A DNA stretch of 19,235 bases, from assembly GCA_027319565.1 (NCBI GenBank), contig DAHVNA010000037.1, positions 1 to 19,235 of the forward strand, given 5' to 3'. Origin of the DNA: Elusimicrobiota bacterium (GTDB lineage Bacteria > Elusimicrobiota > Elusimicrobia > UBA1565 > UBA9628). How positions within the stretch are numbered: position 1 is the first letter of the stretch; each line of letters begins with the position of its first letter. Shown here piece after piece: positions 2,415 through 19,235 of this stretch. The position numbers and the translations under genes were made by a program. The notes beneath the pieces were generated by a model. That model had not been told where the DNA came from. It was given only the letters and a program-made list of their open reading frames with translations, and did not search any database.

Positions 2415-2444
2415 TTGACAGAAAAGCCCCCAAATCGATACCCT
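2415..2444 (+). promoter_or_regulatory. Sigma70-type promoter TTGACA-N18-TACCCT, probably leaderless
   Basis: TTGACA at 2415-2420 and TAnnnT at 2439-2444. ATG follows at 2451 with no SD. Confidence 0.5.
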
Positions 2445-2450
2445 AATCTC

Positions 2451-3074
2451 ATGATGAGATTTATCCCCAGAGAAGAGAAATTTTTCGATTTGTTCGAAGC
2501 CCAGGCCGAGCACAACGTTCACGCCGCGCGCGTCTTTAAGGATTTGGTCGCCCAATGGGACCTGGAATCCCCCTCGTTTCAGAAGATCCAAGATATCGAA
2601 CATGAAGCCGATATCACGACTCACGAAATTTACGATCGCCTAAACCGCACTTTTATCACGCCCTTTGACCGCGAGGATATTCACGAACTCGCTTCTGAAT
2701 TAGATGATATTGTCGATCTGGTTCAATCGGTCTCCATGCGAATGCGCATTTACCGCATCGATCGCTCCGACCCGGCGCTCCTGAGCCTTTCAGAGATACT
2801 TCTCAACGCCACCGAAAATATCCACAAAGCCGTAACAGAATTGCGGCGTTCGGAAAAACAAAGGCGGGTTTTGGATTACTGCATCGAGATTAACCGGCTT
2901 GAGAACGCGGGAGACAAAGCGCTTGAAGAAGCCCTTCGGCATCTTTTCGAGGGTCAACCCGAACCTCTCAACGTCATTAAGTGGAAAGAAGTATATGAGG
3001 GCATCGAAACAGCCATTGATAAATGCGAGGATGTCGCTAACGTTTTAGAATCGATCCTCGTTAAGTCTTCCTAA
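2451..3074 (+). CDS. DUF47/PhoU-like phosphate transport regulator (Pit accessory protein)
   Basis: MMRFIPREEKFFDLF…EHEADITTHEIYDRLNRTFITPFDREDIHELASELDDIVD…INRLENAGD…KWKEVYEGIETAIDKCEDVANVLESI is the typical DUF47 signature. Start moved from 2376 to ATG 2451 (or 2454). TAATG overlap with pit. Confidence 0.92.
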   Translation: MMRFIPREEKFFDLFEAQAEHNVHAARVFKDLVAQWDLESPSFQKIQDIEHEADITTHEIYDRLNRTFITPFDREDIHELASELDDIVDLVQSVSMRMRIYRIDRSDPALLSLSEILLNATENIHKAVTELRRSEKQRRVLDYCIEINRLENAGDKALEEALRHLFEGQPEPLNVIKWKEVYEGIETAIDKCEDVANVLESILVKSS

Positions 3075-4069: not shown

Positions 4070-4117
4070 CTTTAAGCGCCAAAAGGTGGACAATAACAGG
4101 GTCAAGGAGATTTTCCC

Positions 4118-4486
4118 ATGAAAAGAAATTTAATGCGCTTTCGAGGATACCCCCTGTTTATCTCAAGCGCGCTTTTACTGGCGAGCCTTTCGGGATGTCT
4201 CTACACCAACACCTACGCTCCCAATTCCTACCGTTCAGCGACGCCCATTGACGTCAAAGCCGCCGTTTCCGATCCTATTGTTTCCGGAATGGGATGCACC
4301 TACTCCGCTTTGTGGCTCGTCAGCTGGGGAAACTCGGGATACGCTCTTGCCACTCAAAAAGCGCTCAAAAACGATCCTCAAGGCGTTCTCTATGACGTTA
4401 AATCAGATTTAAAGGTGACCTCTTATTTGCTCGGCCTCTGGACTCGAGCCTGCACCATCGTCACCGGAAGAGCCGGTCACGTGTGA
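4118..4486 (+). CDS. TRL-like lipoprotein
   Basis: Lipobox LSGC. The pattern GxxC…LVSWGNSGY…YDVKSD…LGL…CTIVTG resembles the TRL-like family. AAGGAG SD upstream. Confidence 0.65.
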   Translation: MKRNLMRFRGYPLFISSALLLASLSGCLYTNTYAPNSYRSATPIDVKAAVSDPIVSGMGCTYSALWLVSWGNSGYALATQKALKNDPQGVLYDVKSDLKVTSYLLGLWTRACTIVTGRAGHV

Positions 4487-4944
4487 AAAGACCCCTTCTT
4501 ATCGCCTTTTTCGCATTTCTATTCTTTCCTTCAAAGGCTCTCGCCGCGACCTATAATCAATATCCAAGCGTCGTCAGCCCCAGCGGATATTTCATCGTCT
4601 ATGACGTTCAAGGAACCCTTTCCTTTGAGCCCTCAACCCGCTGGGAACTTCCAAAAAACATCCTGGATCGCGGAGAAGTTCTAGGACAAAGCTGCGCCTA
4701 TGCTCTGAGTATTCCCCTTTCCTTGGCTCTAAGCACGACTAAGATTTCCGGGGCTTACGGAGAAAATGGATACAATAAAGCGGTCAAAAATATTTTAAAA
4801 ACCCACCCCAACATTACCGGAATTTACGACGTCAAGGTCGACACGCATATCATCACTGTTTTAGGAATTTTTACCCGCCAATGCCTGGAATTAACGGCAA
4901 GAGCATTTCAAATTCCGACATCCAGTCCGAGGCAAAAAACATGA
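4483..4944 (+). CDS. Second TRL-like exported protein (paralog of the previous gene)
   Basis: Signal peptide ending in ALA. GQSC…YGENGYNKAV…IYDVKVD…VLGIFTRQCLELTA aligns with the upstream gene. GTGA start/stop overlap. Confidence 0.6.
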   Translation: MKRPLLIAFFAFLFFPSKALAATYNQYPSVVSPSGYFIVYDVQGTLSFEPSTRWELPKNILDRGEVLGQSCAYALSIPLSLALSTTKISGAYGENGYNKAVKNILKTHPNITGIYDVKVDTHIITVLGIFTRQCLELTARAFQIPTSSPRQKT

Positions 4945-5519
4945 GAGAAATAATTCTATCCTTCGATCGTTATCTGTTTCACATTATCAACGGCGTTCTC
5001 GTTTGCCGTCCTCTTGATTATGCGATGCCCACCATTACGGATTTTCATAAAATTTCCCTCGTTCGCTTTCTCCTTTTACCGGCGATCGTCCTTTTTTGGA
5101 TTTGGAAAAGAAAAAAAGAAGCCTTAAAGGTGATTTTAGTTCTCGGCATTGTCGCGGGATTTACCGATTTAATCGCCCACCGAATCATTAAGCCTTTAGT
5201 GGGCCGCCTAAGACCTCCTTTATCCGGCATTCCCGTGATCGTGCGCGCGCCCTACGGAGGGAAACTCAGTTTTCCCTCTAATCATGCGGCGAACATGTTT
5301 GCCGCGGCCGCGGTCTTAAGCGCCGCCTACCCGTCTTTAACTCCGCTATTTTATTCCGCGGCCGTCATCGTCTCCTACAGCCGCGTCTATGTAGGGGTTC
5401 ATTACCCCTTAGACGTCATCGGCGGAGCGGTGTTGGGGTCTTTGATCGCCTTTATCGCGATACGGGCCGCCCGCAAGACCGGAGTTTTCCCCCAGCCAGA
5501 AGCTCCTAAAAAAGCTTAG
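4941..5519 (+). CDS. PAP2-family membrane phosphatase
   Basis: KxxxxRxRP (KPLVGRLRP), SFPSNHA and [13 protein letters not shown] motifs. ATG 4941 overlaps the upstream stop (ATGA). Confidence 0.92.
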   Translation: MREIILSFDRYLFHIINGVLVCRPLDYAMPTITDFHKISLVRFLLLPAIVLFWIWKRKKEALKVILVLGIVAGFTDLIAHRIIKPLVGRLRPPLSGIPVIVRAPYGGKLSFPSNHAANMFAAAAVLSAAYPSLTPLFYSAAVIVSYSRVYVGVHYPLDVIGGAVLGSLIAFIAIRAARKTGVFPQPEAPKKA

Positions 5520-7105
5520 TGACCGCGAAAAAGATTTCGGCGCTTTTTCTTTTCATCGTCTTGCCCTCCGTTTTATTTATCTTAAAGAAAAATCAACTCT
5601 CTATTCCGCTCATCAGCGACGAAGGGGAATACGCCTATGAAGCTCGCCTACTCTCCGGACAAGGACTGCCCTATTTAGACGCTTACAATCAAAAGCCTCC
5701 GCTCATTTTCTTTCTCTACCGATGGGCCTATCAATTTTCCTCGAATCCCCTTGCCCCTAGAATTCTCAGCTTTATTTTCTCATGTCTAACCCTCTTTTTT
5801 CTTTTTTTCATCACCCCTGAAAGTTTTAGCCTTCTCTCCCGATTGGCGGCCCCAAGTTTTTTCGTCATTCTCAGCTCGACTCCCTTGGCCGATTTATTTT
5901 CGGCTAATTGCGAAATGTTTTTGATCTTGTTTAACGCGGTCTCGATTTGGGCTTTGCTTCAATTCTGGAAAAATCCCCGGAATCTTTTATGGCCGCTTAT
6001 CTCCGGCTTTTTTTGCGGCCTGGCCCTCATGACCAAACAAACCGCCTTCTGGTTTGTCTTGGGTCTCATCCCCTTTTGGGCTCTTAAGCGCGAAACCCGC
6101 CCGCGAACTTTTATCCAGATAAGCTCTTTTCTGCTGGGAACCCTTTTAGTCCCGGCCGTTTGCGCTTTTTATTTTTTTGCCAGAGGAGATTTAAGAGCCT
6201 TCGCGCAAGAAGCCTTTTTCAACAACGGAAGATACATCGCGGTCATCTCAAAGCTGGGATGGAATTCCATCGTCCAGCACGTTTTAATCTGGTGGGGCGG
6301 CTGGTATCTAACGAAAGCAGTGATCCCCAACTCGACGATATGGGCGCTTTGTCTCTACGGCTTAAGCGTTTTAAAAATAAGCGAAGAAAACCGCTTCGGG
6401 GTTTTAGCGACCCTTTGGCTGGGAACGAGTTTTATGGGGGCCATGACCGGGCTTTTTTTATTTCCCCACTATTTTTTTACGGTCTATCCTCCGCTGGCTG
6501 TCTTAGCGGCCCAGGGCCTTGAGTGCCTTCGCGAAAAATATCGCCTCTCTTCGCGTTCTGTGGGAATTTTAATTTTCGCGTTTTGCCTCTATCCGGTTTT
6601 GATTCAAAGCCGCGCTTATTTTGACGAAACTCCTCTTGAGCTTTCAAAAACCCTTCTCTACCCCAATCCCCTTTTTGAATCGAAACTCATCGCCCAGGAA
6701 ATCAGAAAAGAGACGAGCCCCTCGCAAAAAATCTACATCTTCGGTTCCGAGCCTGAAATTTATATTTATAGCGGGCGCAAGGCCGCAACCCCCTACATCA
6801 CTTCTTATCCTCTGACCTTATTCCCCAAGAATAAATCCCAGATATCGGAAGAGTTGTCCAGACTTGAGAAATCCCCTCCGGAATTAATTGTTTATTCCGA
6901 CATCGCGGGCTCCCAAGTCATCGGATCGGCTTTGGGACTTTATTTTAGAGACCAGATTCAAAATTTTCTCAAAGCCCGTTATTTGCCCGTTGGGAAAGCG
7001 CCGGTCTTACGCGCGAACGCGCCGCCGCAGTTTATTCCGGAGACGGCTTTTCCGAAATTAGACTACACAAACGCCCTCTATCTTTTTCGTTTAAAAAAAT
7101 CCTAG
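5519..7105 (+). CDS. ArnT/PMT (GT39/GT83-like) membrane glycosyltransferase
   Basis: DEGEY…GLPYLDAYNQKPPL motif, GLALMTKQ, many TM segments and a C-terminal extracytoplasmic domain. Confidence 0.8.
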   Translation: MTAKKISALFLFIVLPSVLFILKKNQLSIPLISDEGEYAYEARLLSGQGLPYLDAYNQKPPLIFFLYRWAYQFSSNPLAPRILSFIFSCLTLFFLFFITPESFSLLSRLAAPSFFVILSSTPLADLFSANCEMFLILFNAVSIWALLQFWKNPRNLLWPLISGFFCGLALMTKQTAFWFVLGLIPFWALKRETRPRTFIQISSFLLGTLLVPAVCAFYFFARGDLRAFAQEAFFNNGRYIAVISKLGWNSIVQHVLIWWGGWYLTKAVIPNSTIWALCLYGLSVLKISEENRFGVLATLWLGTSFMGAMTGLFLFPHYFFTVYPPLAVLAAQGLECLREKYRLSSRSVGILIFAFCLYPVLIQSRAYFDETPLELSKTLLYPNPLFESKLIAQEIRKETSPSQKIYIFGSEPEIYIYSGRKAATPYITSYPLTLFPKNKSQISEELSRLEKSPPELIVYSDIAGSQVIGSALGLYFRDQIQNFLKARYLPVGKAPVLRANAPPQFIPETAFPKLDYTNALYLFRLKKS

Positions 7106-7770
7106 GAACACGAAGCGGTTCCTTCTTTACAGCCATAGCGGGCCTGATAAAAACATTCTTGTTGAAGCTCTTGGTTTTTTTGGACATGCTTTTCGCATCT
7201 TCTCTCAAGGCCCAGTGACTTTTGATAAGAATCATCCTTTTGAAGACAGCGTCTAAGACAACTTTTTTGACAAGACCTTCGCGAAAAATAAAAATTTTTC
7301 CGTTTCAAACATCGGGCGCGGCATTGGGGCTTGCAATTTCGTTTTAACTCCTCTTGAGCAAGCGACGCGTAAGCGGCCTCGCAATGAATGACGCCATTTC
7401 GAACGCAAAGTTTTGAATTCCACTCAACGCAGCGCTCAATAGAACAGGAAGCCCCTGGCGAGACATTCTGGGGGTTATCCCCATTGGGATTTTCGCTATA
7501 TTCCGAAGGAATTTGTCCCTGAAAGGCCGAGTGGACCGTCGGCGCGCGAACGGAGGGCTGTGAAACCTCAAACTCATTTCCGGATACGGATTTCACCTCG
7601 TCGTTATGGGTAAAATTATTCTTAAGCCGCGAGAAATCGACCGCGGTGTTATCCGACTGATATCCGGAGACATTCCCATTGAGAGTTGGAAACTGTTGCG
7701 CCCGCGATGAAAAGATGAAAACTCCTCCCGCAAAAACCACTAATATCAGGATGAACGCCCATTTTCGCAT
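7102..7770 (-). CDS. Secreted or membrane-anchored cysteine-rich hypothetical protein
   Basis: N-terminal hydrophobic signal, a polar linker and 14 Cys in the C-terminal ~115 aa. It has its own consensus promoter. Confidence 0.75.
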   Translation of the reverse strand: MRKWAFILILVVFAGGVFIFSSRAQQFPTLNGNVSGYQSDNTAVDFSRLKNNFTHNDEVKSVSGNEFEVSQPSVRAPTVHSAFQGQIPSEYSENPNGDNPQNVSPGASCSIERCVEWNSKLCVRNGVIHCEAAYASLAQEELKRNCKPQCRARCLKRKNFYFSRRSCQKSCLRRCLQKDDSYQKSLGLERRCEKHVQKNQELQQECFYQARYGCKEGTASCS

Positions 7771-7776
7771 AAAATC

Positions 7777-7805
7777 ATTATGCGCTGAGTTTGAGCGTTT
7801 GTCAA
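7777..7805 (-). promoter_or_regulatory. Sigma70 promoter TTGACA-N17-CATAAT, leaderless
   Basis: On the minus strand, TTGACA at 7805-7800, a 17-nt spacer, CATAAT at 7782-7777, then 6 nt to ATG 7770. Confidence 0.8.
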
Positions 7806-7872
7806 TTGGGAAGAAAAAAACACGGTAAATTTTGAAAATACCGAATTCGAGGCTATCGCTAGGAATTTGACG

Positions 7873-9474
7873 CTACCGCAAGACAATAGGGAGAATCTTG
7901 GAGAGTTCCGAGCGCGGAAGAAGCTGAGGATTTTGAGAATGATTGTCCAACTCCGCCACATTTTCAACTTCCGGCTCTAAATAATCGTAAAGCGACCCTA
8001 AGGTCACGTTTTTTTTGCCGCTCAACGCCTTTCCGTTGAGTCCGCGCAAGAAATAATAGGTCAAAAGCCCGTGGCCTTGGCTTTTGATGACCTCGGCCGT
8101 TTGATCGTCGCGCGCGGCGGTCAAAACCGCGATTTGGCCGTTTCCAGGGACAAAGCCCGGGCGAACGCGAGTCGACAACGGGCGTATTCCCAGACGGATA
8201 ATTGAGCGCGCGCCAGCGCCGGAAAAACAAGAGTCTAAAACGACGATGATTCGCTTGGCGTGAATCTTCAAAAAATCGGCATAGAGCCTTTTTAACGGAT
8301 AGGCGGTCTTTTCTAAAAACTCCGGATCCCCGTCAAAGGGAACCAGGTAGGCCTGTCCCGTATCCGGATTAGGCGCGCCATGCCCTGAAAAATAAAAAAA
8401 GACGCGGGATTTTGTTCCCACGTTTTTGGGCAGCCAGTCCTCCAAATAAGCCGCCAAATCGCTTTTGGTCGCCGTTTCATTGAGCAGAAAGCGGATATGG
8501 CGCGCAGGCACGCCCAAGGCAAGCATATATTTTTTGACGGTCAGCGCGTCTCTTTGAGAAAATTCGGAATGCGGCAACTTGCCGGCGTATTTCTCGACTC
8601 CCACCACAATCGCAAAATCATCTCGCCGGGGCGGCTCCTCAAAACTAGGCGCGTCCACGTCGCTTTTAATCGCTTTTGTTTTTTTCGCGAGCTTCGATTG
8701 TTTTTTAAGGCTTTCTATTTCCTTGGCGAGAACATCCAAACGCCGCGCGATATCGGCCTGGGTTGAATTTTGGGCGGATTGCGCGGCTTTCAAAGCGATT
8801 TTAGAGACGTCTTCCCGCGTCAAATTCTGTTTGTTGGATAAACGCTCGGCGTCCTCTCGAATACCTGGAGACGGGGGATGACGCCGGTAATCCTCAATAA
8901 GCGCCGCCACCTGCTGGTGTTCGGTCTGATAGGCATAATCGAGAGCGGTCCGTCCATTTTCATCGCTCGCATCGACATCGGCCCCATGGTTGAGCAAAAG
9001 CTCGACTAAACCCGCCTGCCCATATTTCGCGGCCAGCATCAGGGCCGTGCGGCCATAGATGTTTTTGGCGTTGAGGTCCGCTCCATTAAGGATTAAAAAA
9101 TGCGCGACCTCCATCTGTTTTTGGGAAATCGGGGAAGATAAATGGCGAACAGGCATTACATGAAATTTCGGAAAAAGAAAATCGGGCCGGATAAAACCGC
9201 TGTCATTCCAAAGCTGCGGCATATCGGCATGGCCGTTGGAGGCGATTTCCATTAAGGCCGTGTCTCCGGCCTTGTCAACCGCGTTGATATCGGCGCCCTG
9301 ATCAATGAGGCTTTTGACTTTGGAAAGATCCCCTCTGGATACGGCGCGGAAAAATTGAGAGTTCAGTCCGGCGAAAGAAGAACGCGGCAAGAAAAGAAGC
9401 AAAACGGAAAGTAACGGGAAGAAACAGAAAGGCGAAAATGGGAAGAACTGACCTTTGTTTGTCTTTTTGATCAT
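7873..9474 (-). CDS. Secreted ankyrin-repeat + caspase-like (peptidase C14) protein
   Basis: Signal peptide (…SSFA/G), ankyrin repeats (GADINAVDKAGDTAL, GRTALMLAAKYGQ, GRTALDYA) and a coiled-coil. The C14 domain carries the catalytic His (FSGHG) and Cys (LDSCFSG). Confidence 0.9.
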   Translation of the reverse strand: MIKKTNKGQFFPFSPFCFFPLLSVLLLFLPRSSFAGLNSQFFRAVSRGDLSKVKSLIDQGADINAVDKAGDTALMEIASNGHADMPQLWNDSGFIRPDFLFPKFHVMPVRHLSSPISQKQMEVAHFLILNGADLNAKNIYGRTALMLAAKYGQAGLVELLLNHGADVDASDENGRTALDYAYQTEHQQVAALIEDYRRHPPSPGIREDAERLSNKQNLTREDVSKIALKAAQSAQNSTQADIARRLDVLAKEIESLKKQSKLAKKTKAIKSDVDAPSFEEPPRRDDFAIVVGVEKYAGKLPHSEFSQRDALTVKKYMLALGVPARHIRFLLNETATKSDLAAYLEDWLPKNVGTKSRVFFYFSGHGAPNPDTGQAYLVPFDGDPEFLEKTAYPLKRLYADFLKIHAKRIIVVLDSCFSGAGARSIIRLGIRPLSTRVRPGFVPGNGQIAVLTAARDDQTAEVIKSQGHGLLTYYFLRGLNGKALSGKKNVTLGSLYDYLEPEVENVAELDNHSQNPQLLPRSELSKILPIVLR

Positions 9475-10457
9475 CTTTGATCGAACTGCTTTGACTCATC
9501 CCAAGAATCCCAGCACTCATTGGCATGAAGTAAAAGCTCGGGGTTTTCCTGCATCCGATCTATAAACTTTTTGACGATGGGCGACTCCCAAGCCTTGACC
9601 ACCTTGTCCCAAGCGGATTTTAGTTCTTCTTTCTTAAGATCCGCCGCATAGAAAGGAAGGGCGTTGAGGAGTTTAACCTTGCCGTCGGGAACGACCAAGA
9701 CCATGGATTGCGGGTTTTGAAGTCTCACCACCGCTTCACGGCGAATATCCCAAGGATAAGCTGAAATTTTAACCTTATTGCCGAGAGTCTCGGCCCGCTC
9801 TTTAATTTTTTTGAGGGTTTTTTTCCACGCCTCATCTGAAACCGACAAGCGATCCCAGGCCGCCGCGGCCCGGCCCAAGCGCATCATGGGGCCGGTGACA
9901 AACAGGCGCGCGCCCAATGAATGAGCCAATTCATAAGCGGAGACCGCGTCCTCTAAATTCAATCGATTCGGAACGAAAACAAATTCCGGCTCGAGTCCCG
10001 CTTGAGACAAGGCCTTAAGAGCATCCACGGCTTTTTTCCAGGAGCCGCTGGGCCTGACGCGCTCATGAATTTCCGGAGTCGAACCGTCGACGCTAATTTG
10101 AATGGAGGAAATTCCCAAGCGCTTCAAGCGTTCAATCGCCGCTGAATCAATGGCAAGCCCATTGGTCTCGATTTTAATTTGCGCGCCGCCGCGGCTTAAA
10201 ACTTCAAAAACATCCCAAGCGTGTTCGACAAAAAGAGGCTCTCCGCCTCCAAAAGCGACATATGGAATTCCCAATTCGACGATCTGGCGGGATAAAGACA
10301 GGGCTTCTTCTTTGGAGAGCTCTTTTTTCCACGCCTTATCCGGACCAGATTCTTCGCAACAGTGAAGGCAAAAAGAGGTGCAGCGGTTAGTCAGCTGCCA
10401 AGCAAGAAAGAGGGGAGCGCTATAATCGACGATCCGCGCCCCCCTCTCGTGAGTCAC
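9471..10457 (-). CDS. Radical SAM protein 3 (PqqE/MftC-like core, Cys-poor SPASM-like tail)
   Basis: CTSFCLHC (CxxxCxxC), GGGEP, IETNG and QISVDG. The GTG start overlaps the peptide stop. Confidence 0.92.
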   Translation of the reverse strand: MTHERGARIVDYSAPLFLAWQLTNRCTSFCLHCCEESGPDKAWKKELSKEEALSLSRQIVELGIPYVAFGGGEPLFVEHAWDVFEVLSRGGAQIKIETNGLAIDSAAIERLKRLGISSIQISVDGSTPEIHERVRPSGSWKKAVDALKALSQAGLEPEFVFVPNRLNLEDAVSAYELAHSLGARLFVTGPMMRLGRAAAAWDRLSVSDEAWKKTLKKIKERAETLGNKVKISAYPWDIRREAVVRLQNPQSMVLVVPDGKVKLLNALPFYAADLKKEELKSAWDKVVKAWESPIVKKFIDRMQENPELLLHANECWDSWDESKQFDQR

Positions 10458-10576
10458 GTGAACCGAATGTAGGGCTGCGCCATCACCCGCTCGGAAACCT
10501 CTTCCATTTTGGGAGTTTCCCAGACGAGTTTTTTTGAGGCTTTCGCCCCTTCGCTCACGTTTTTTTGGTCGTTCAT
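10454..10576 (-). CDS. 40-aa putative RiPP precursor peptide MNDQKNVSEGAKASKKLVWETPKMEEVSERVMAQPYIRFT
   Basis: AAGGAG SD 5 nt before ATG 10576. It fills the only gap in the operon, and its stop overlaps the next start (GTGA). WxxPxM resembles the (W/Y)xxPx(L/F) leader motif bound by RREs. Confidence 0.8.
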   Translation of the reverse strand: MNDQKNVSEGAKASKKLVWETPKMEEVSERVMAQPYIRFT

Positions 10577-10595
10577 TCTGTCTCCTTCGTGCCGA

Positions 10596-11561
10596 CTAGA
10601 CCATAGCCGGCAAATCGGACGTTTCCAAAGGCCGCAGCTGATTGGCGGCGGCCAAAACGGAATCGTCTTTAAGAATTTCCTCAAAACCTGAAGATATCTT
10701 AGGATTTTGGTAAGCCTTTTGACACTTCTCCCACGCTTGGATTAAAGTTTCTTTTCTCAAATCAGCGCAGGTATAGGGCAAAAAGGCGGACACCCGAACG
10801 CGGCCATCCGGCAAAATCAAAATGGTGGCGGGAGAAGATACTTTCTTGGCCGTTAAGTCCTCTTGAATCGAAAAAGGCCTAAACAAAATCTCCATCTTTC
10901 CAGAAAACTCTTTTTCTTTCATCTCAAGCAAATTATAAAATTTTTCGTATTCCGCAAAAGAGAGGTTGAGTTTTTCCCAGAGTTTGGCCGCGGTTCCAAG
11001 CCGCATCAAACTGCCGGTGTTTAAGCGAAAAGCCCCGAGACTAGCCGCCAAATCAATGACCGCCGCGGCTTCAGAAACATTGATTCTGGTCGGCGCGAAA
11101 GTAATTTCAAGCGGAAGATTAAATTTCCGCGCCGCGCGGCAGGCCGAAAGGGTTTTCTCCAAAAAAGCGCCGGGGCGCATTTTAGAATAAACGGCCTGGG
11201 TGGCGCCGTCAATTGAAATCTGAAGAGACCGGATCGGCAAATGAGAAAGCCTTTCCGCTTCTTTTTCTCCGAAAATTTGGCCATTGGTCTCGACTTTAAG
11301 ATAAACCCCACCTTGCCCCAAAAATTCGGCCAGCTCGAAAAAATGCGGAACAATCAGAGGCTCGCCCCCCGCCAAGAGAAGATACGGCACTTGGGCTTTT
11401 ACAATTTGGCCCGCGATGTTTAACGCCTCGCCGCGGGAAAGCTCATGGAGAAAAGGCCTTCCCGGAGCGGAATCGGTACAGCAATGCAGGCAGGCAAGAT
11501 TGCAGTCTCTCGTCACCTGCCAGGCGATAAAACTCGGCGCCGAAAGATCGGATGTTTTCAT
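10596..11561 (-). CDS. Radical SAM protein 2
   Basis: CNLACLHC, AGGEP, VETNG and QISIDGA. ATGA overlap with the prenyltransferase. Confidence 0.92.
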   Translation of the reverse strand: MKTSDLSAPSFIAWQVTRDCNLACLHCCTDSAPGRPFLHELSRGEALNIAGQIVKAQVPYLLLAGGEPLIVPHFFELAEFLGQGGVYLKVETNGQIFGEKEAERLSHLPIRSLQISIDGATQAVYSKMRPGAFLEKTLSACRAARKFNLPLEITFAPTRINVSEAAAVIDLAASLGAFRLNTGSLMRLGTAAKLWEKLNLSFAEYEKFYNLLEMKEKEFSGKMEILFRPFSIQEDLTAKKVSSPATILILPDGRVRVSAFLPYTCADLRKETLIQAWEKCQKAYQNPKISSGFEEILKDDSVLAAANQLRPLETSDLPAMV

Positions 11562-12484
11562 TTAGAGATCAGGAGAGTCAAGGTAAAAACCGAGGTTGAA
11601 ACGAGATAGCACAAAACGATATTTTTAATCGCCGGAATAAAGAGGCGCGGGCTGTCCCAGGCGTTTAAAGCCGTCTTGGCGCTCAGTATCCAAAATGGAA
11701 GCCCAGAAAAGGCCGCGAAAAAAGCCGCTTTGGGAAAAACTCCCGCCGCCGCTCCCACGATCGCAACCAGAAGGCCCAAGGCGGACAATCCCAAGTATAA
11801 GAAAACCCCGTTTTTTCTCCCCAATCTCACGACGAGGTTCCGCTTTCCCACCAAACGGTCTTGATAAAAATCGGGAATCGCGTTGACGACCGCCAAGGAC
11901 ATAATCAAAAGCCCGGGAACCAAGGAAGCCAAAAGCGCTCCCCAAGAAAATCGCCGGGTATAAAGCGCCAAGCTTCCCAAGGTCATCCAAGGCCCGTAGG
12001 ATAGGCCAATCATCAGTTCCCCCATGCCGCGGTAAACCCATCGAATGGGCGGACCGACATAAAAAAGAGCGGCCAGTCCCCCGAGCAAGGTGTAAAGGAT
12101 GACGGGCCATCCGCCAAATTTCGCCAGGTAAAACCCCACCGCGGCCGCGACCGCAAAGGAGAAAATTCCCAGCCACAGCATCCACTCCGGAATATATTCA
12201 TCATCGGAGGGGTTAAACACGCGATCGGTGCCCATCCGGGCGTCGAAATATTCGTTAAAAGACTCAACCCCCACGACAGACAGGAAAATTCCAAAAAGCC
12301 CCAAGGAGAAAAGATGCGGCGAAAAAGTTTTTTCCACTCCATAGGCCCAGGCCGAGCCTAAAAGATAGGGAAGCAGCCCCGCATAGAGAAAGAAACGATA
12401 GCGAATCAGTGAAAAGACGCGAAAAGGCGCGTCTAAGACACCGGGGACGCCGGGGCACTTCGCGATAGGCGTTTCCGCCGCCAT
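11558..12484 (-). CDS. UbiA-superfamily prenyltransferase (MenA/UBIAD1-like)
   Basis: Asp-rich motifs NEYFDARMGTDR and NAIPDFYQDRLVGKRNL, YRGMGE and multiple TM helices. Start at ATG 12484 by TAATG coupling. Confidence 0.9.
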   Translation of the reverse strand: MAAETPIAKCPGVPGVLDAPFRVFSLIRYRFFLYAGLLPYLLGSAWAYGVEKTFSPHLFSLGLFGIFLSVVGVESFNEYFDARMGTDRVFNPSDDEYIPEWMLWLGIFSFAVAAAVGFYLAKFGGWPVILYTLLGGLAALFYVGPPIRWVYRGMGELMIGLSYGPWMTLGSLALYTRRFSWGALLASLVPGLLIMSLAVVNAIPDFYQDRLVGKRNLVVRLGRKNGVFLYLGLSALGLLVAIVGAAAGVFPKAAFFAAFSGLPFWILSAKTALNAWDSPRLFIPAIKNIVLCYLVSTSVFTLTLLISK

Positions 12485-13461
12485 TAAACCTCGACCCATT
12501 TATGGAGTTTTGAAACCACCGTCGGATCTTTTTCCAACTCCTGGACAAAGCCGTAGACCTTGGGGTTTTTCCAGGCTTCCTGAAAATGCTTCCAGACCCG
12601 GCCCAAGGACTCATCGCGCAAGTTTCCGCAGACAAAAGGAAGGGCGTTAATGAGTTTGACCTTGCCATTGGGCAAAATAATGAAAAGCGCCGCTGGATTT
12701 TCAAGGCGATATTTGAGCTCTTCCAAAAGGCCCATTTCATGGAAATAAACTCTCATTCGCCCTTCATATTCCTTGGCTTTGGCGCGCAAGGCGTCAAAAA
12801 ACTCCGGGTAATCGGCTTCATCGGGAGCGGTCATCTTCCAAGTCCTGACCGCGTTGCCGGTGTACATGATTTTGCCGGTATAGAAGCTGTAAGCCCCCAG
12901 TTGATACGCCAAGTCCACGACATCGGAAATTTCCTTGATGTTGAATTTCGCCGGGACAAAGTTGATTTCAATCGGCACGCCCGCAAGGCCTAGATTTTTA
13001 ATTCCCTCGGTCGCCGATTCAAAACGCCCGTGAATCCGCATCTTGTTAAAAGACGCGGGGTTTGCCCCGTCTAATGAAACCTGGACGGCCTTGACTCCTA
13101 GGGTCTTAAGCCGCCGGCAATTTTCAGGCGTCAAATAATGCCCGTTGGTCTCGATTTTCAGCCCCACCCCGCCCTTAATGATTCTTTCGACCATCTCGAA
13201 AAAATGCGGGTGAACCATCGGCTCGCCGCCGGAAAAAGAGACGTAGGGCACCTGTCCTTCGATTAGCTGATCGATAATCGAAAAAGCCTCGTCTTTCGTC
13301 AATTCGTCTTTAAAGGCTTTTCCCGGCCCGGATTCTTCGATGCAGTGAAGGCAGGCGAGATTGCACTCATTGGTGATCTGCCAGGCGACATAAAGAGGCG
13401 CGCCTAAATCTTCGGAAGAAACCGCTTCTTCCGCTTCTTTAACTTGAGCGGGAGAAGCCAT
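12484..13461 (-). CDS. Radical SAM protein 1
   Basis: APLYVAWQITNECNLACLHC, SGGEP, IETNG and QVSLDGA. Confidence 0.93.
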   Translation of the reverse strand: MASPAQVKEAEEAVSSEDLGAPLYVAWQITNECNLACLHCIEESGPGKAFKDELTKDEAFSIIDQLIEGQVPYVSFSGGEPMVHPHFFEMVERIIKGGVGLKIETNGHYLTPENCRRLKTLGVKAVQVSLDGANPASFNKMRIHGRFESATEGIKNLGLAGVPIEINFVPAKFNIKEISDVVDLAYQLGAYSFYTGKIMYTGNAVRTWKMTAPDEADYPEFFDALRAKAKEYEGRMRVYFHEMGLLEELKYRLENPAALFIILPNGKVKLINALPFVCGNLRDESLGRVWKHFQEAWKNPKVYGFVQELEKDPTVVSKLHKWVEV

Positions 13462-13901
13462 TATTCGACGATGAGGCCCTTGCCTTTGAGATCGGTTAAA
13501 AACCCGGCGGCCTCTTTTTCCATATTTCCGGTCGGATCCTCGTATTTTTCCTTCAGTTTCCCGAATAAGGACGCGGAATCGGCTCCGGCGACGATTTCGC
13601 GAACCACCGCCGCGCCTGTGGGGCTTAAGGTATAAACCTTTTCGGACCGGGTCTCAAACAAAACCGCCCCGAATTTTTCCTCTCTAAATTTCACAAATGG
13701 CGCTAATTTCATAACTCCTCCCTTGGATGCGGCCAAACACGCGGACGCGTCCGCCGCTTCTCTTTCAATGATGTCCTCAAGTTCGCGCCGCACGTTTTCG
13801 CGGCTTTGAACGTTGACTGCGTCTTTAGAGTTCGCTTCTTTTTCCGATACGGCAAAATCTCCCGACTTCCAGGCTTTTTTAATCAAGGATTGATAAGACA
13901 T
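13461..13901 (-). CDS. PqqD/RRE-family peptide-binding protein with a 63-aa N-terminal extension
   Basis: Residues 64-146 (MKLAPFVKFREEKFGAVLFETRSEKVYTLSPTGAAVV…LKEKY…FLTDLKGKGLIVE) show the 3-strand/3-helix PqqD/MftB pattern. TAATG coupling at both ends. An internal SD and ATG lie at 13712. Confidence 0.85.
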   Translation of the reverse strand: MSYQSLIKKAWKSGDFAVSEKEANSKDAVNVQSRENVRRELEDIIEREAADASACLAASKGGVMKLAPFVKFREEKFGAVLFETRSEKVYTLSPTGAAVVREIVAGADSASLFGKLKEKYEDPTGNMEKEAAGFLTDLKGKGLIVE

Positions 13902-14854
13902 TAAAATTCTCTCTTGGCCATGACTTCAATAAAGAAAGACAGATCTTTGGCCTCGTCTTTAAGCGGCAGACCCAAACACAGGGCTTTCATCGAATCGACG
14001 ATCTCGCGCCCTTTAACGCGCGCTTCATCTAAGAAACCCTCCTTCTTAACGAAAGAAATCGCCTCTTTGACCGCGTTTGAGTCGGTTTCGCCGCGGCGCC
14101 ATAAATCCAAAAAGTTTCCGCGGGTTTTCGGGTTTTGAAGGGCCAAAATGCAGGGCAATGTCAGACGGCGATTCATCAAATCCTGGGCCGCGGGTTTTCC
14201 CGAGACTTCCTCGGTTAAAAGAAAATCATGGATGTCGTCGACAATTTGAAGCAAGATTCCCGCCGATAAAGCGAGCCGCGGCGGATCGGAGGACTCATGG
14301 GGAAAGGGGCTTATTTCGGAGAGAACCTTGCCGCACCACTCAAACAAGGCGCCGGTTTTTCGAGCGGCGATTCCCAAATAAGCGTCTACGGAGACCTCGA
14401 CACTTCCTTTTAGAAATTCTTCCTGAAGCTCTCCGGCCGCCATTTCCCGAACCGTCGTCACCAGATGTTCCGGGGCTCTTGGAGAAATATCGATGGCCTC
14501 TTCAAGGCCTTGAGAAAAAGCGAGATCGCCCAGCAAAAGCGCGACCGTATTTCCAAAAAGAGCGTTCGGCGTGGCCACGCCGCGGCGGGTGTCGGCCTTA
14601 TCCACGCAATCATCATGCAAAAGAGAGGCGTTGTGAACAAACTCCATCGCGCGGGAAGCCGCCTCCGCTTTTTTTTCGTCAACCCCCAAGGCTCTGGCCA
14701 AAAGAAGGCAAAAGCGGGCTCTCAGCATTTTCCCCGGGCGGCCCACGTAACCGGCCAGGGTCTCCCCCACGCGCCCGGAAAGCCTGCGCGCGCGGCTCTC
14801 CATTCCGAGGCGAACTCTCTCGATGGAATCTTCAAGGCTAAGTAGCGCTAGCAT
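13901..14854 (-). CDS. Trans-polyprenyl diphosphate synthase (probably long-chain)
   Basis: GKMLR, FARM (HNASLLHDDCVD…RRG), KTGALF and SARM (LQIVDDIHD). Confidence 0.93.
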   Translation of the reverse strand: MLALLSLEDSIERVRLGMESRARRLSGRVGETLAGYVGRPGKMLRARFCLLLARALGVDEKKAEAASRAMEFVHNASLLHDDCVDKADTRRGVATPNALFGNTVALLLGDLAFSQGLEEAIDISPRAPEHLVTTVREMAAGELQEEFLKGSVEVSVDAYLGIAARKTGALFEWCGKVLSEISPFPHESSDPPRLALSAGILLQIVDDIHDFLLTEEVSGKPAAQDLMNRRLTLPCILALQNPKTRGNFLDLWRRGETDSNAVKEAISFVKKEGFLDEARVKGREIVDSMKALCLGLPLKDEAKDLSFFIEVMAKREF

Positions 14855-14868
14855 AGATTTAGATATCT

Positions 14869-14877
14869 ATTATAGCA
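14869..14877 (-). promoter_or_regulatory. Extended -10 promoter TG-C-TATAAT for the prenyl/rSAM operon
   Basis: Perfect TGnTATAAT 14 nt upstream of ATG 14854, with no SD. Confidence 0.7.
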
Positions 14878-14957
14878 TTCTGAAAAAAATTCCATCATTA
14901 AAAACGTTAGGTACACGCCCCCGTTAAATTGTTAAATTAAGTAGCGTCTTATTTTAT

Positions 14958-15431
14958 ATGCCGAGCCGAAATACATCGAATTTCCTCCGCCGTTTGTTTC
15001 GCGTTAGCTTAGCGCTCAAGGCAGTGGACGGAGTTCTTGAAACAGCGGGCGGAATTCTCTTAGCGATCTTCAATCGAGGAACGCTCAACCAGATGGTCAT
15101 CGCCTTGACCCAGCATGAATTGACCGAAGATCCAAAAGATTTCGTGGCCAATCATCTTCGTTTACTTGTCGGGCATCTCACCAGCGACGTCAAGTTGTTC
15201 GCGGTAGCCTACCTTTTGATTCATGGACTTTTGAAAGTGGCGCTCGCCATTAACTTACTGAAAGGACGGACCTGGGTCTATCCCTGGGCGATGGGTTTCT
15301 TTAGCCTCTTCATGGCCTATGAAGCTTATCGTCTGAGCTACGCTCATTCCCTGCCGATGGCGTGCTTCTTTGCCTTAGACCTAGCGATTGTCGCGCTCCT
15401 TTACTGGGAACACAGGGTAAAAACGCTATGA
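14958..15431 (+). CDS. DUF2127-like membrane protein
   Basis: LKAVDGVLETAGG…HELTEDPKDFVA…YLLIHGLLK…WVYP…YEAY pattern with about 4 TM segments. Confidence 0.75.
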   Translation: MPSRNTSNFLRRLFRVSLALKAVDGVLETAGGILLAIFNRGTLNQMVIALTQHELTEDPKDFVANHLRLLVGHLTSDVKLFAVAYLLIHGLLKVALAINLLKGRTWVYPWAMGFFSLFMAYEAYRLSYAHSLPMACFFALDLAIVALLYWEHRVKTL

Positions 15432-15910
15432 CACCCGCCAAAGCTCTCGCCATTTTTGGCGCGAAATATTTGCTCGTGATCATCGTAGGCATCGCGCTGA
15501 TTTACTTTCTGCGGCAGCCGCGACCCACTCAGAGGAAAATGCTGACCCTCGCCGCCGTCGCCTGTCCGCTCATTTTGCTCATCGCGCGCCTTATCGCGAT
15601 TTTTTATTACGATCCAAGGCCCTTCGTCGTGGGCCATTTTGCGCCCTTGATTCCGCACGATCCCGATAACGGCTTTCCGTCCGATCATGCCCTATTGGGG
15701 GCCGCAATCTCATCATGGGCCTTTCCCTTTTCAAAAAAACTATCGGCCGCCGCTTGGATTTTGACCCTGCTGGTCGGTTTTTCAAGAGTCTATGTCGGGG
15801 TTCATCATCCGATTGATATCGCGGGCAGCATCATCATCTCGATTTTGACCACCTCCGCGGTTTACCGAGGTCTCAATCTTCGGAGCGCACCCGAGCGCGA
15901 AATTTTTTGA
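15428..15910 (+). CDS. PAP2-family phosphatase (BcrC-like undecaprenyl-diphosphatase)
   Basis: PRPFV, GFPSDHA and [13 protein letters not shown] motifs. ATG 15428 overlaps the upstream stop. Confidence 0.88.
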
Positions 15911-16277
15911 CGCCGGAGCGGTGGAGTTTGTCTTTTAATATTCGCGCCTTTGAGGCTTTGGACCTTCCGCGCTTTTGGCGACGGGCTCTTTCAAGCTCGC
16001 TTTTCTCTCGCGCCTTCTCCGCGCGCAAGCGGCTTTCCAGCTTTTCAAGCAGCCGCAATCTCGCCAAAAAACGGTTTTGCGCCTGAGAGCGGGATTCCTG
16101 GCAGCGCACGATGATTCCGCTCGGACGGTGAATCAATGTGACAGAGGTCTCGACTTTATTGACGTTTTGCCCGCCCTTTCCGCCCGAGCGCGAAAAACTC
16201 TCGGCTAAATCCTTCTCCAAGACGCCCAGCCTAGCCAAGCGCGCCGAAATCTCATCCCATTGACTCGCGATCTCCAT
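15873..16277 (-). CDS. arfB: Alternative ribosome-rescue peptidyl-tRNA hydrolase (ArfB/YaeJ-like)
   Basis: [17 protein letters not shown] (GGQ motif), SRSQAQNR, a basic C-terminal tail and no codon-recognition domain. Confidence 0.85.
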
Positions 16278-16283
16278 CCATCA

Positions 16284-16292
16284 ATCATAGCA
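16284..16292 (-). promoter_or_regulatory. Extended -10 promoter TG-C-TATGAT, leaderless arfB
   Basis: TGCTATGAT on the minus strand, followed by 6 nt and then ATG 16277. Confidence 0.65.
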
Positions 16293-16406
16293 CTCCCAAG
16301 CCGCCTAAAGAGCGTAAGCCGATGCGGGTTAATTTTCTCGCGGCAAAAATTTTTTCTGGAATCGAAAGGCTGAAAATAGATAAAATAGCGCGTCGGAGTA
16401 TTTTAC

Positions 16407-16481
16407 GCGCTCGTAACACAACGGATAGTGTCCAAGCCTGCGAAGCTTGGTATCCAGGTTCGATTCCCGGCGAGCGCACCA
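16407..16481 (+). tRNA. tRNA-Arg(GCG), CCA encoded
   Basis: GCGCTCG-TA-ACAC AACGGATA GTGT-C-CAAGC CTGCGAA GCTTG-GTAT-CCAGG TTCGATT CCCGG-CGAGCGC-ACCA. A20 Arg determinant in the D-loop, and one A-C mismatch in the T stem. Confidence 0.92.
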
Positions 16482-16506
16482 TTTTTTGGCGCTTTCGCTT
16501 TTGGCT

Positions 16507-17739
16507 TTACGCTTCCGAGCGGATTAAATCCGCAAAGGTCTCGCGGCGGCGGATAAGCCGCGCGGTTTTGCCATCAACCAGAACTTCAGAGGCGCGCGGG
16601 CGGAAATTGTATTGGGAGCTCATCGAAAACCCGTAGGCTCCCGCGTTTAAAATCCCCAAGAATTCCCCGGACTTGGGCGCGCAAAGGCTTAAATCTCTCG
16701 CGAAAAAATCGGCGGACTCGCAGACCGGCCCCGCGACGTCAAAAATCTCGGCCTTGCCGGTTTTTTTCTCAAGAGAAACGACGGGATGGCGCGCCCCGTA
16801 AAGCGCGGGGCGCAAAAAGTCGTTCATTCCCGCATCCACAATCAAGAATTTGCGTTTACCCCCCGCCTTGACATGGACAATGCGGGTTAGAAGAATTCCG
16901 CTTTCGGCGACCAAAAAACGCCCCGGCTCAAGAACCAAGCCCAAAGCCGGCCACTCTTTAAATTCCTGAGAATAGGCGCCGGCAATGCCTGAAAAGTCGA
17001 TTGTCTCATCTCCCACTCCAAACCCGCCTCCCATATCGACAAAGGAAAGAGAAATTTTTCGCATCGCCAATTGACGGATAAAATTTTTCGCAAGAGAAGC
17101 GGCTTGGACGTAGGGCTTGGAAGAAAAAACCTGCGAGCCTAAATGGCAGTGAAGTCCCGCAATCTTTAACCATTTCGCTTTCCTCGCCCATTCATACATC
17201 AAGAAGGCCTCTTTTTGATTAACTCCAAATTTGGACAAGTTTCCGGAGGTCACCGTATGGGGATGGGTCTTGGCTTTAATGGGAAAATTAATCCGCACCG
17301 AAACGGAAGCCTTTAGCCGCATTTGAGCGGAGACTTCCCCCAAAGCCTTTAATTCCTCAAAAGATTCGACATTGAAGGCCAAAATCTTTTGTTTAATTCC
17401 AAAACGAATCTCATCCCGGGTTTTCCCGACTCCGGAAAATAAAATTTTTGAAGGCGAAAAACCGATGCGAAGGGCCTGGCGCAATTCTCCGCCCGAGACC
17501 ACTTCCGCCCCGGCGCCCAGCTCTTTAAAAACCCGGCAGAGAGAAAAATTAGAATTGGCCTTGAGCGCGTAACAGATGAGTAGCGGGCGGCCGGAAAACG
17601 AATTCTTAAGGCTTAAGTATTGATCCATCAGCGAAGCCTGGGAATAAACGTAAAGCGGGGTTTTAAATTTTTGGGCCAAAGAGGCGAGCGGCACCCTCCC
17701 AACGCTCAAGCTTTTCCCGCGATAACTAAAAAAACTCAC
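16507..17739 (-). CDS. lysA: Diaminopimelate decarboxylase
   Basis: TPLYVYS, YALKAN (PLP Lys), HCHLGSQ, LEPGRFLV, GPVCESAD and GAYGFSMSSQYN. Start moved to GTG 17739 (GGAG SD, GTGA overlap with the upstream stop). Confidence 0.95.
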   Translation of the reverse strand: MSFFSYRGKSLSVGRVPLASLAQKFKTPLYVYSQASLMDQYLSLKNSFSGRPLLICYALKANSNFSLCRVFKELGAGAEVVSGGELRQALRIGFSPSKILFSGVGKTRDEIRFGIKQKILAFNVESFEELKALGEVSAQMRLKASVSVRINFPIKAKTHPHTVTSGNLSKFGVNQKEAFLMYEWARKAKWLKIAGLHCHLGSQVFSSKPYVQAASLAKNFIRQLAMRKISLSFVDMGGGFGVGDETIDFSGIAGAYSQEFKEWPALGLVLEPGRFLVAESGILLTRIVHVKAGGKRKFLIVDAGMNDFLRPALYGARHPVVSLEKKTGKAEIFDVAGPVCESADFFARDLSLCAPKSGEFLGILNAGAYGFSMSSQYNFRPRASEVLVDGKTARLIRRRETFADLIRSEA

Positions 17740-19235
17740 GTTTGTTTCTCCGCGAACGCTTCTTTTAAGAACTCCTGGCCTCGCCTTCTGGAAGGCGAGT
17801 GCTTTTTTCGGCAAAGGTTTGGAAAGCGGCAATACCGGCAATGACCATATTCGCTTTCATCGTCCGGGTTAATGGGAAAATATCCGCGCTCAATTGAGTT
17901 TAAAATTTTGGAGAGATTCTTTAAAAAGAGCTCGCGCTGATTTTGCCAATCGGAAAAAGAATAAGGATAGGCCGAAATTTCATCTTGACCTCCCTCCAGT
18001 TCATAGAGAGAAGCGCCTTTAATCTCTTTACCGGGATAAGCATGGGACAAAAGCTCAAGATAAAACGGAATCTGAAAAAATTCTCCGCCTAAAACCAGTT
18101 TTTTGGGATCGCCTTTTTTCCAACTCTTCTTGTAATCAATGATCTCAAGCATGTTTCCGTCTAAACTCTCGTCAATTCGATCAAGCCTTCCGCGTATTTG
18201 GTAACCCACAGAATGGGGGATATCGGCGCGGAATTCTTTTTCCAACTCAAAAGGGCGCATTTTCTCTTGTCTGAGCCTGCGAATGTCCAACTCGACTAAT
18301 TTTCTCAAACGCTCGCTGATATTGTTTTTAACCGACAGCCACAAAAGAGGATACACCCCGAGCCGGTTTTCGTCATATTCGGAAAAAGACTCTTCAATGG
18401 CCCGGTCTAACAAATCATCATATGGTTTTTTCCCTTCTAAAACCGGATTGGGAAAATGAGACCAAGAAGAATAAAACCGCCTAAGAATATCATGATAGAT
18501 TTGGCCGATCATCTGGGGAGAAATCTCATCCTTGCTGTTTTTCTCGTCTTCCGAAAGCTCTAAAACCCGCGCGGCGAAAAAACGAAACGGACATTGAGTA
18601 TAAACCTCAAGACTCGTGGGCGAAACGCCTTCTCTCAAGCGTCCAAGAAACTTATTGGGAGTTTCCACGATCCCGTCTCTTTCACCGTTGGAAACGCGGA
18701 GATTTAACTCTTCAGCCGCCTTGAGGCCCACTTCCAAAAGTTCCGCCTGCGGAAGATTGAGCGCCGCCAAAAAAGGGACCGCACTCGCGTTTTGAAGACA
18801 AGCATAAAGACTCATCTCCGCCGGAGACAGATACCGCGGCTCTATCATTTGGAGTTTTTCCGAGGCGTCTCTCGGAACCCTGATGAGATCAGAATCCCCC
18901 AGAGAAATATGAGCCGCCTGGGCCAACTCATAAAGGTAAAAAGACGGAACCTGTTCCTTACCCTCCTCATTGGAACGCGAATAAGCGCAGTAGAGCTTCT
19001 CTTGGGCGGAAGAGACAAGCAAATAAAATAGAAGCTTTTCTTCTTCGTATCCTTCCTTTTTCGGGCGAATCCAGTATCCGGCGGGATGGCGCAAGAAAGC
19101 GCGCGCCGGGTCTTTTAAAATGGGGTCTTCCACTATCGCCCGCGGAAATATTCCTTCATTAAGACCCAAGATAAATAAAACCCGAAAAGATTCCCCGCGG
19201 GCGGCCATCGCATCCATGACGCGAACCCCAATAGT
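17736..19235 (-). CDS. AddB/RexB-like PD-(D/E)XK nuclease subunit (partial; 5' end outside the window)
   Basis: ILGLNEGIFP, EEKLLFY…SA…LYCAYS and SPTSLEVYTQCPFRFF. RecB-type RGRLDRID…IIDYK motif and a C-terminal CRYC…C Fe-S staple. The frame stays open to the window edge. Confidence 0.88.
   Translation of the reverse strand, partial: TIGVRVMDAMAARGESFRVLFILGLNEGIFPRAIVEDPILKDPARAFLRHPAGYWIRPKKEGYEEEKLLFYLLVSSAQEKLYCAYSRSNEEGKEQVPSFYLYELAQAAHISLGDSDLIRVPRDASEKLQMIEPRYLSPAEMSLYACLQNASAVPFLAALNLPQAELLEVGLKAAEELNLRVSNGERDGIVETPNKFLGRLREGVSPTSLEVYTQCPFRFFAARVLELSEDEKNSKDEISPQMIGQIYHDILRRFYSSWSHFPNPVLEGKKPYDDLLDRAIEESFSEYDENRLGVYPLLWLSVKNNISERLRKLVELDIRRLRQEKMRPFELEKEFRADIPHSVGYQIRGRLDRIDESLDGNMLEIIDYKKSWKKGDPKKLVLGGEFFQIPFYLELLSHAYPGKEIKGASLYELEGGQDEISAYPYSFSDWQNQRELFLKNLSKILNSIERGYFPINPDDESEYGHCRYCRFPNLCRKKHSPSRRRGQEFLKEAFAEKQT

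Follow-up and report, generated by a model that had tools for sequence, protein, structure and literature searches.

A conserved peptide, radical SAM, and prenyltransferase cassette of Elusimicrobiota and Proteobacteria, and its probable role in making a membrane electron carrier

A 19,235-nt stretch of DNA from an Elusimicrobiota bacterium (positions 1 to 19,235 of the forward strand of contig DAHVNA010000037.1, GenBank assembly GCA_027319565.1; hereafter, the window) encodes, in one operon, a short peptide, a recognition element (RRE) of the kind found with peptides that are made by ribosomes and modified after translation (RiPPs), three radical S-adenosylmethionine (rSAM) enzymes, a polyprenyl diphosphate synthase, and a UbiA-family membrane prenyltransferase. 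What would a bacterium make with these genes? The original prediction, made from the window's sequence, offered either a prenylated lipopeptide or a quinone-like redox carrier. Distribution tests and genomic neighborhoods favor the carrier: the cassette probably directs synthesis of a low-potential electron carrier of the membrane, derived from the peptide and polyprenylated, that takes the place of menaquinone. We observed that its genes are co-inherited, that the peptide core is invariant, that the cassette is nearly exclusive with the known menaquinone pathways (Men and Mqn), and that it is linked to enzymes that use quinones. Since the cassette occurs mainly in respiring bacteria without those pathways, an undescribed membrane electron carrier is probable.

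Conservation of the cassette

The operon lies on the minus strand of the window and consists of the following features:

14869 to 14877, minus strand: extended -10 promoter element TGCTATAAT, 14 nt before the first ATG, giving a short or leaderless 5' end
13901 to 14854, minus strand: long-chain trans-polyprenyl diphosphate synthase (IspB/HepT-like), accessory (PF00348, 154 bits)
13461 to 13901, minus strand: full RRE/PqqD open reading frame (ORF) including its extension
13713 to 13901, minus strand: 63-aa N-terminal extension of the RRE ORF, no family match
13461 to 13712, minus strand: RRE (PqqD-fold) core, 83 aa, with its own Shine-Dalgarno sequence and ATG (PF05402, 37 bits, cut-off 23.4)
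12484 to 13461, minus strand: radical SAM 1 (rSAM1), the most conserved paralogue (PF04055; CxxxCxxC intact)
11558 to 12499 (likely start 12484), minus strand: UbiA-family membrane prenyltransferase, MenA/UBIAD1 branch, own subfamily (PF01040, 72 bits)
10596 to 11561, minus strand: radical SAM 2 (rSAM2), a paralogue missing in locus L074 (Pfam radical SAM)
10454 to 10576, minus strand: 40-aa precursor peptide with variable N-terminus, WxxP leader motif, and C-terminal core V(M/T)AQPYIRFT
9471 to 10457, minus strand: radical SAM 3 (rSAM3), a paralogue (Pfam radical SAM)

The seven ORFs are co-oriented (14854 to 9471), with the synthase first and rSAM3 last. The synthase/RRE, RRE/rSAM1, and, given a UbiA start at 12484, rSAM1/UbiA junctions are TAATG overlaps, while UbiA/rSAM2 and peptide/rSAM3 are joined by ATGA and GTGA, respectively; between rSAM2 and the peptide there is a 19-nt gap with a Shine-Dalgarno sequence ahead of the peptide. 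The predicted layout, i.e., seven co-oriented genes behind one extended -10 promoter with all junctions but one overlapping, was thus confirmed. The promoter element is the sole TGnTATAAT match in the whole window, and it is weak on its own because 29 of 200 shuffled sequences also yield one; in 19 of the 25 synthase-carrying loci described below, however, a TGnTA(T/G)AAT element is found a short way upstream of the synthase start. Pfam assigned the proteins to polyprenyl synthetase, PqqD, radical SAM (all three), and UbiA, leaving the peptide without a family, and none of the seven reached a curated NCBIfam cut-off.

To assess conservation we used 100 loci, comprising 20 from relatives and the best 80 of 202 GTDB stretches in order of similarity to a query from a betaproteobacterium. 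Of these 80, 71 were proteobacterial and 9 were of Elusimicrobiota type, so that 29 Elusimicrobiota loci were included. Genes were called with a codon-score gene caller, and a few loci represent the same genome twice (e.g., L017 and L112). Casimicrobiaceae, Usitatibacter, Caldimonas, Steroidobacteraceae, Acidiphilium, and Acidocella were among the proteobacterial hosts. The record of L097 is titled as a Bordetella species, yet its locus resembles those of environmental betaproteobacterial metagenome-assembled genomes (MAGs), and the label may be wrong. Results showed rSAM1 in all 100 loci, the RRE and UbiA in 99 each, rSAM2 in 94, rSAM3 in 93, the peptide in 94, and the synthase in 25, with the gene order RRE-rSAM1-UbiA-rSAM2-peptide-rSAM3 kept among loci. 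Among related genomes, rSAM1 was matched at E 1e-30 or better in 52 of 61.

Smaller forms of the cassette were also found. Genome G405 (locus L159) carries peptide, RRE, a single rSAM, and UbiA with an identical peptide core, and the same four-gene form recurred in six metagenome loci (L231, L233, L236, L239, L243, and L246, among 80 loci listed of more than 120), two of which have a polyprenyl synthase nearby. A two-rSAM variant without rSAM2 (L074) retains the same core. These variants (one-rSAM L159, L236, and L239; two-rSAM L074) rule out seven genes, or three rSAMs, as a fixed unit. The predicted seven-gene set therefore does not stand as such, with its synthase in a quarter of the loci and one to three rSAMs, while its central claim, a conserved RiPP-type system with its own UbiA prenyltransferase, does. 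The conserved core is the peptide, the RRE, one to three rSAMs, and a MenA-like prenyltransferase.

All 94 peptides end in V(M/T)AQPYIRFT followed by a stop codon, and the six loci in which none was detected are short or end inside the cassette. Among 120 listed homologues (of 452), 117 share the final ten residues, two depart from them at a single position, and the remaining one is unrelated. Since the amino acids are invariant while synonymous positions vary freely, this conservation is not due to chance. The peptide matched no NCBIfam or Pfam model; it has the form of a RiPP precursor, being short, with a WxxP leader and a conserved core, and encoded beside the enzymes. The same pattern, a variable N-terminus and a C-terminus invariant at the protein level, led Haft to call the mycofactocin peptide a cofactor precursor, as set out in passages of PMC3023750. 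In the metagenome loci L208, L216, L246, and L230, peptide genes of the one-rSAM type have as neighbors either a molybdopterin reductase with NrfD or a hydrogenase-like cluster of the NADH-dependent kind; the peptide gene of L208 has no enzyme gene within 6 kb, and hence orphan precursor copies exist.

The RRE/PqqD domain of an RRE-dependent rSAM RiPP system was likewise present, its core scoring above the PF05402 cut-off and matching TfuB1 (PDB 6jx3; E 5e-6). Within the ORF there is an internal Shine-Dalgarno sequence and ATG at 13712; an internal start behind the extension is kept among extension-bearing loci, and two products are likely made from the ORF. The 63-aa extension is co-inherited with the synthase and is missing in L028, L030, L035, and the proteobacterial loci. 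A family search with it gave no usable match, and it bears no likeness to the synthase, of which it is possibly a partner.

The CxxxCxxC motif was present in all three rSAMs of the window and in their alignments. The best NCBIfam matches of rSAM1 were MftC and AhbD (about 134 bits, far below the cut-offs) and its tail is SPASM-like, but the rSAMs lack the SPASM cysteines of PqqE and MftC. No SPASM/twitch set of auxiliary-cluster cysteines and no PF13186 match were found in these enzymes, whose conserved C-terminal cysteines number one in rSAM1 and one or two in rSAM2, with none strongly conserved in rSAM3. A fast tree resolved one family into four groups, namely rSAM1, rSAM2, rSAM3, and the single type, a pattern compatible with duplication within the cassette.

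The prenyltransferase conserves both Asp-rich Mg/diphosphate motifs of the UbiA family (NEYFD...D and PD...QD...GK), and its nearest solved structure is UBIAD1 (PDB 8djk). It scored 52 bits against the MenA model TIGR00751, below the cut-off of 102, has an invariant N-terminal motif unlike MenA, and grouped apart from MenA in a fast tree whose outgroup was one true MenA and three MenA-like rows. Two unrelated functions could nevertheless adjoin here, a salvage MenA acting on scavenged 1,4-dihydroxy-2-naphthoate (DHNA) and a separate rSAM/peptide system. Such a lone menA would likewise give exclusivity with the full Men pathway, and stand-alone MenA-like genes do occur in some Elusimicrobiota (L123-L125, in G025, G008, and G010). 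However, the cassette UbiA stays inside the cassette in nearly all of the 100 loci, and also in the reordered one-rSAM variants, and it groups with the cassette and not with MenA or the stand-alone genes, which occur in carriers as additional copies and have an altered first Asp motif. We therefore regard coincidental adjacency as highly improbable. Another 20 UbiA-type genes, from relatives that included non-carriers, might have marked a hidden alternative cassette, but no cassette-type rSAM or peptide was found near them.

The synthase, found in Elusimicrobiota and in none of the 71 proteobacterial loci, keeps both Asp-rich motifs and has Ala or Ser before the first of them, which we take to indicate a long-chain product. 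It had been called dedicated. The host of the window has two PF00348 genes, the cassette synthase and an IspA-type gene beside dxs, whereas two non-carrier kin have only one; the cassette gene is thus the sole long-chain-type synthase found in the host and not an extra copy. The host also has a hopanoid cluster (squalene-hopene cyclase and an HpnH-like rSAM) with IspA, dxs, and IspH (G000:C56:74500-83357).

Distribution and genomic neighbors

If the product replaces menaquinone, how is the cassette distributed against known quinone pathways? We examined 151 genomes (completeness filter 85) of one betaproteobacterial family, that of locus L043. The cassette was found in 27, FrdC, of quinol:fumarate reductase, in 62 (59 over the cut-off), MenB over the cut-off in 31, MenA over the cut-off in 40, and RquA in 12. 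Cassette and MenB never overlapped, and the cassette shared one genome with MenA and one with RquA. Among the 62 FrdC genomes, 19 had the cassette only, 40 had menA and/or menB only, one had both, and two had neither, while the 108 genomes without menA/menB divided into 19 with cassette and FrdC, 7 with the cassette only, 2 with FrdC only, and 80 with neither. Two of the seven carriers without FrdC have an frdB remnant and four have napC and fdhC beside the cassette. Fumarate reductase works with low-potential quinones, and menaquinone and rhodoquinone rarely co-occur, according to passages of PMC11707229. RquA was rejected as the partner of this family's Wolinella-type fumarate reductase since none of the 12 RquA genomes has FrdC; a divergent cassette next to frd was sought in 20 of the 42 FrdC genomes that lack a cassette, and none was found; those genomes have menA and/or menB. 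A conserved island of pyruvate:ferredoxin oxidoreductase and Wolinella-type FrdCAB was also noted in this family, in which 43 of the 151 genomes carry menA/menB.

In a tree of FrdA (18 cassette and 18 Men rows, L106 forming a long branch), well-supported branches forced six changes of label. The two sets are therefore not two clades, and the same enzyme pairs repeatedly with either system. A comparison of 17 with 20 FrdC sequences gave no fixed difference that would mark a cassette-specific quinol site, with five columns differing in tendency. This interchangeability could also mean that the cassette is a third route to a known or nearly known quinone, i.e., a (demethyl)menaquinone-like naphthoquinone whose DHNA-like ring is built, wholly or in part, by the peptide and rSAMs and then prenylated by the MenA-like enzyme, the nearest relatives of which are MenA and UBIAD1. 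Passages of PMC13386864 argue that an alternative menaquinone pathway must exist in some cyanobacteria, which counts in its favor. Yet the cassette enzyme forms a group of its own with an N-terminal motif that sets it off from MenA, and MenG/UbiE over the cut-off was found in none of four Elusimicrobiota examined, three of them carriers. Furthermore, we know of no precedent for a naphthalene ring derived from a Tyr/Phe peptide. A third naphthoquinone route is thus unlikely.

We then considered 251 Elusimicrobiota genomes, of which 25 had the cassette, 17 an MqnC-type gene of the futalosine pathway (14 over the cut-off), none MenB, and 66 NuoA of complex I. Cassette and MqnC did not overlap, all 42 genomes with one or the other are NuoA-positive, and the cassette is missing from every one of the 185 NuoA-negative genomes. 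In both sets of genomes, as would be expected of a respiratory quinone pathway, hosts of dependent enzymes thus show the cassette and the other low-potential quinone pathways in a complementary distribution, with exceptions. The host of the window (G000, 91.65% complete) encodes complex I including NuoF, a b558-type SdhCAB, CydA, two heme-copper oxidases, and proline dehydrogenase. MqnC, MenB, and MenG/UbiE were not found over their cut-offs, a result that, because of the completeness of the assembly, means not found rather than absent; the only other UbiA-family gene encodes heme O synthase, the search for ubiquinone genes having covered UbiA and UbiE. Many lineages lack known quinone pathways, as stated in passages of PMC13386864. 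The passages on respiratory complexes in a survey of Elusimicrobia (10.1101/765248) make no mention of the cassette.

The neighbors of proteobacterial cassettes point in the same direction as the carrier reading. Within the fetched flanks, 47 of the 71 loci have frd, napC, or fdhC: a Wolinella-type fumarate reductase was found in 24, a NapC/NirT-type cytochrome in 23, and formate dehydrogenase cytochrome b in 9. Pyruvate:ferredoxin oxidoreductase (21) and a RatA/COQ10-like START protein (14) were also seen, and decaheme Mtr-type genes and hydrogenase adjoin proteobacterial cassettes as well. In L179 and L211 the napC gene is embedded in the cassette, and in L172, L196, and L219 it immediately precedes the peptide gene, while an Nqr-like operon (NqrB and NqrC over the cut-off, the rest under) precedes the one-rSAM form in L239.

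Such neighbors might instead reflect a shared low-oxygen lifestyle, with the product a non-redox, prenylated, rSAM-crosslinked lipopeptide serving as a ComX-like signal, a membrane anchor, or an assembly factor of anaerobic respiratory complexes. FNR-like boxes upstream of 7 of 70 proteobacterial loci, as compared to 0 of 213 control windows, are consistent with this, as are the lack of an oxidase or peptidase conserved in the cassette and the extra peptide genes away from the enzymes in some metagenome loci (e.g., L208). The Y-I-R-F of the core fits known rSAM crosslink motifs as well. However, variation is usual in signals and antimicrobials, and this core shows none from one phylum to another; the genes conserved among the 100 loci include no exporter, receptor, or immunity gene; and a shared lifestyle predicts co-occurrence with menaquinone genes where near exclusion was seen. 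We consider a lipopeptide of this kind improbable.

Proposed product and comparison with known systems

How might the carrier be made? We infer each chemical step as follows. The RRE would bind the WxxP leader of the peptide, and the rSAM enzyme(s) would modify the core, most likely by joining the Tyr ring to a neighboring residue to form a redox-active ring; one rSAM would suffice in some lineages, while three paralogues would divide the work in others. The MenA-like enzyme would then C-prenylate the aromatic ring with a long chain, supplied by the cassette synthase in Elusimicrobiota and presumably by the IspB of ubiquinone synthesis in Proteobacteria. Since the cassette has no conserved peptidase, we propose that the leader is removed by proteases of the host. 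Electrons could reach the product from complex I, Sdh, Fdh, or hydrogenase and pass from it to fumarate reductase, cytochrome bd, or quinol dehydrogenases of the NapC type.

Several observations weigh against such a carrier. First, no oxygenase, methyltransferase, or peptidase is conserved in the cassette (100 loci) and the rSAMs lack auxiliary-cluster cysteines; it is therefore not evident how Tyr would become a two-electron carrier. Second, exclusivity within Elusimicrobiota is confounded by descent, because a single order holds 24 of the 25 carriers, and none of the 29 Elusimicrobiota loci has frd, napC, or fdhC nearby. Third, the genomes of both distribution tests are MAGs, and kin among them are not independent, so that the Fisher values obtained are overstated. 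Finally, 24 of the 66 NuoA-positive Elusimicrobiota have neither the cassette nor MqnC; they may be quinone scavengers, reflect assembly gaps, or use yet another carrier. A divergent cassette was sought in them with the one-rSAM enzyme and rejected, the best matches being 28-31% identical. Two of the 24, the close kin G007 (99%) and G037 (97%), have NuoA and COX1 without the cassette, MenB, or MqnC; carriers are hence not alone in having a respiratory chain but no known quinone route, which counts against necessity.

Despite these points, we lean, with somewhat less assurance than for the carrier itself, toward a new class of respiratory quinone equivalent, in which a redox head from a ribosomal peptide would bear a polyprenyl tail attached by a MenA-like enzyme. 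Most members of one Elusimicrobiota order would have no other membrane electron carrier, scattered beta-, gamma-, and alphaproteobacteria would use it as their low-potential carrier, and it would have repeatedly changed places with the Men pathway. To our knowledge, the respiratory quinones described so far derive from small aromatic compounds, and pyrroloquinoline quinone (PQQ) and mycofactocin, the cofactors known to come from peptides, are soluble. If correct, a peptide-derived membrane carrier would join the fields of respiratory quinones and peptide cofactors, and would bring with it a new RiPP reaction, UbiA-type prenylation, and rSAMs that work without auxiliary clusters.

Membership in PQQ, mycofactocin, GeoRSP, SynChlorMet, and MenA was rejected, as scores fell below the NCBIfam cut-offs. 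The cassette resembles the mycofactocin system in its short precursor with an invariant C-terminus, its RRE, an rSAM with MftC as best match, and a cofactor-like distribution with dependent redox enzymes. It differs in that its rSAMs score 102-134 bits against an MftC cut-off of 265 and lack SPASM cysteines, MftB scores 18.7 against 33, and the peptide does not match; moreover, a membrane prenyltransferase stands in place of the peptidase and glycosyltransferase, and the partners are membrane quinone enzymes, unlike the nicotinoproteins of mycofactocin. With PQQ it shares the PqqD-fold RRE, a Tyr-containing core, a presumed quinone-like product, and the WxxP leader, present in PqqA also. However, it has no ExxxY core, PqqB, or PqqC, scores 53-80 bits for PqqE (cut-off 381) and 16 for the PqqD equivalog (cut-off 46), and its product would be lipid-anchored.

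Like the Men, futalosine, and RquA rhodoquinone pathways, the cassette has a MenA-branch prenyltransferase, a long-chain prenyl synthase, and apparently the same slot beside quinol:fumarate reductase; unlike them, it would use a peptide head group, no chorismate-derived ring genes were found in carriers, and the distribution is near-exclusive. ComX/ComQ and the cyanobactin enzymes LynF and PagF place an isoprenoid on a ribosomal peptide, as the cassette would. Those systems use IspB-fold (ComQ) or ABBA enzymes and variable cores, whereas the cassette transferase is UbiA-type, its synthase keeps both Asp motifs, and its core is invariant. GeoRSP and SynChlorMet, which are uncharacterized rSAM/PqqD systems, similarly combine several rSAM/SPASM-like genes with a PqqD-like chaperone, but the cassette scores 52-91 bits against cut-offs of 400 and its peptide hits none of their NCBIfam models or any other. 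Judged by sequence, then, the cassette is like mycofactocin and PQQ in its logic and would be like menaquinone in its function, having failed the membership tests of each.

The prediction that no characterized pathway would match was borne out by the failure to reach any curated NCBIfam family and by the literature searched, in which, with few subscription papers covered, no description of the cassette was found. The main texts of two RRE surveys, the RRE-Finder paper and one from 2025, do not mention a prenyltransferase or UbiA, though their supplements may list the cassette RRE. The cassette is real, conserved, and apparently undescribed.

Other features of the window

Downstream of rSAM3 the window contains an eighth gene on the same strand:

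7873 to 9474, minus strand: ankyrin-repeat and caspase-like (Peptidase C14) gene with a signal-like N-terminus (Pfam), coupled to rSAM3 by ATGA

Despite this translational coupling, membership in the pathway was rejected, since ankyrin-type genes lie downstream in only 11 of the 100 loci, all Elusimicrobiota (in tandem in L019 and L114); the gene is probably a lineage-specific neighbor outside the pathway. Further along, a near-consensus promoter (7805-7777) precedes a gene on the minus strand (7102-7770) for a 222-aa, Cys-rich, probably secreted protein that matched no Pfam or NCBIfam model. On the plus strand, a coupled run at 4118-7105 encodes two TRL-like small proteins, a PAP2-like protein, and a PMT_2 glycosyltransferase, and is preceded at 2376-4069 by a DUF47-like/phosphate-transporter pair.

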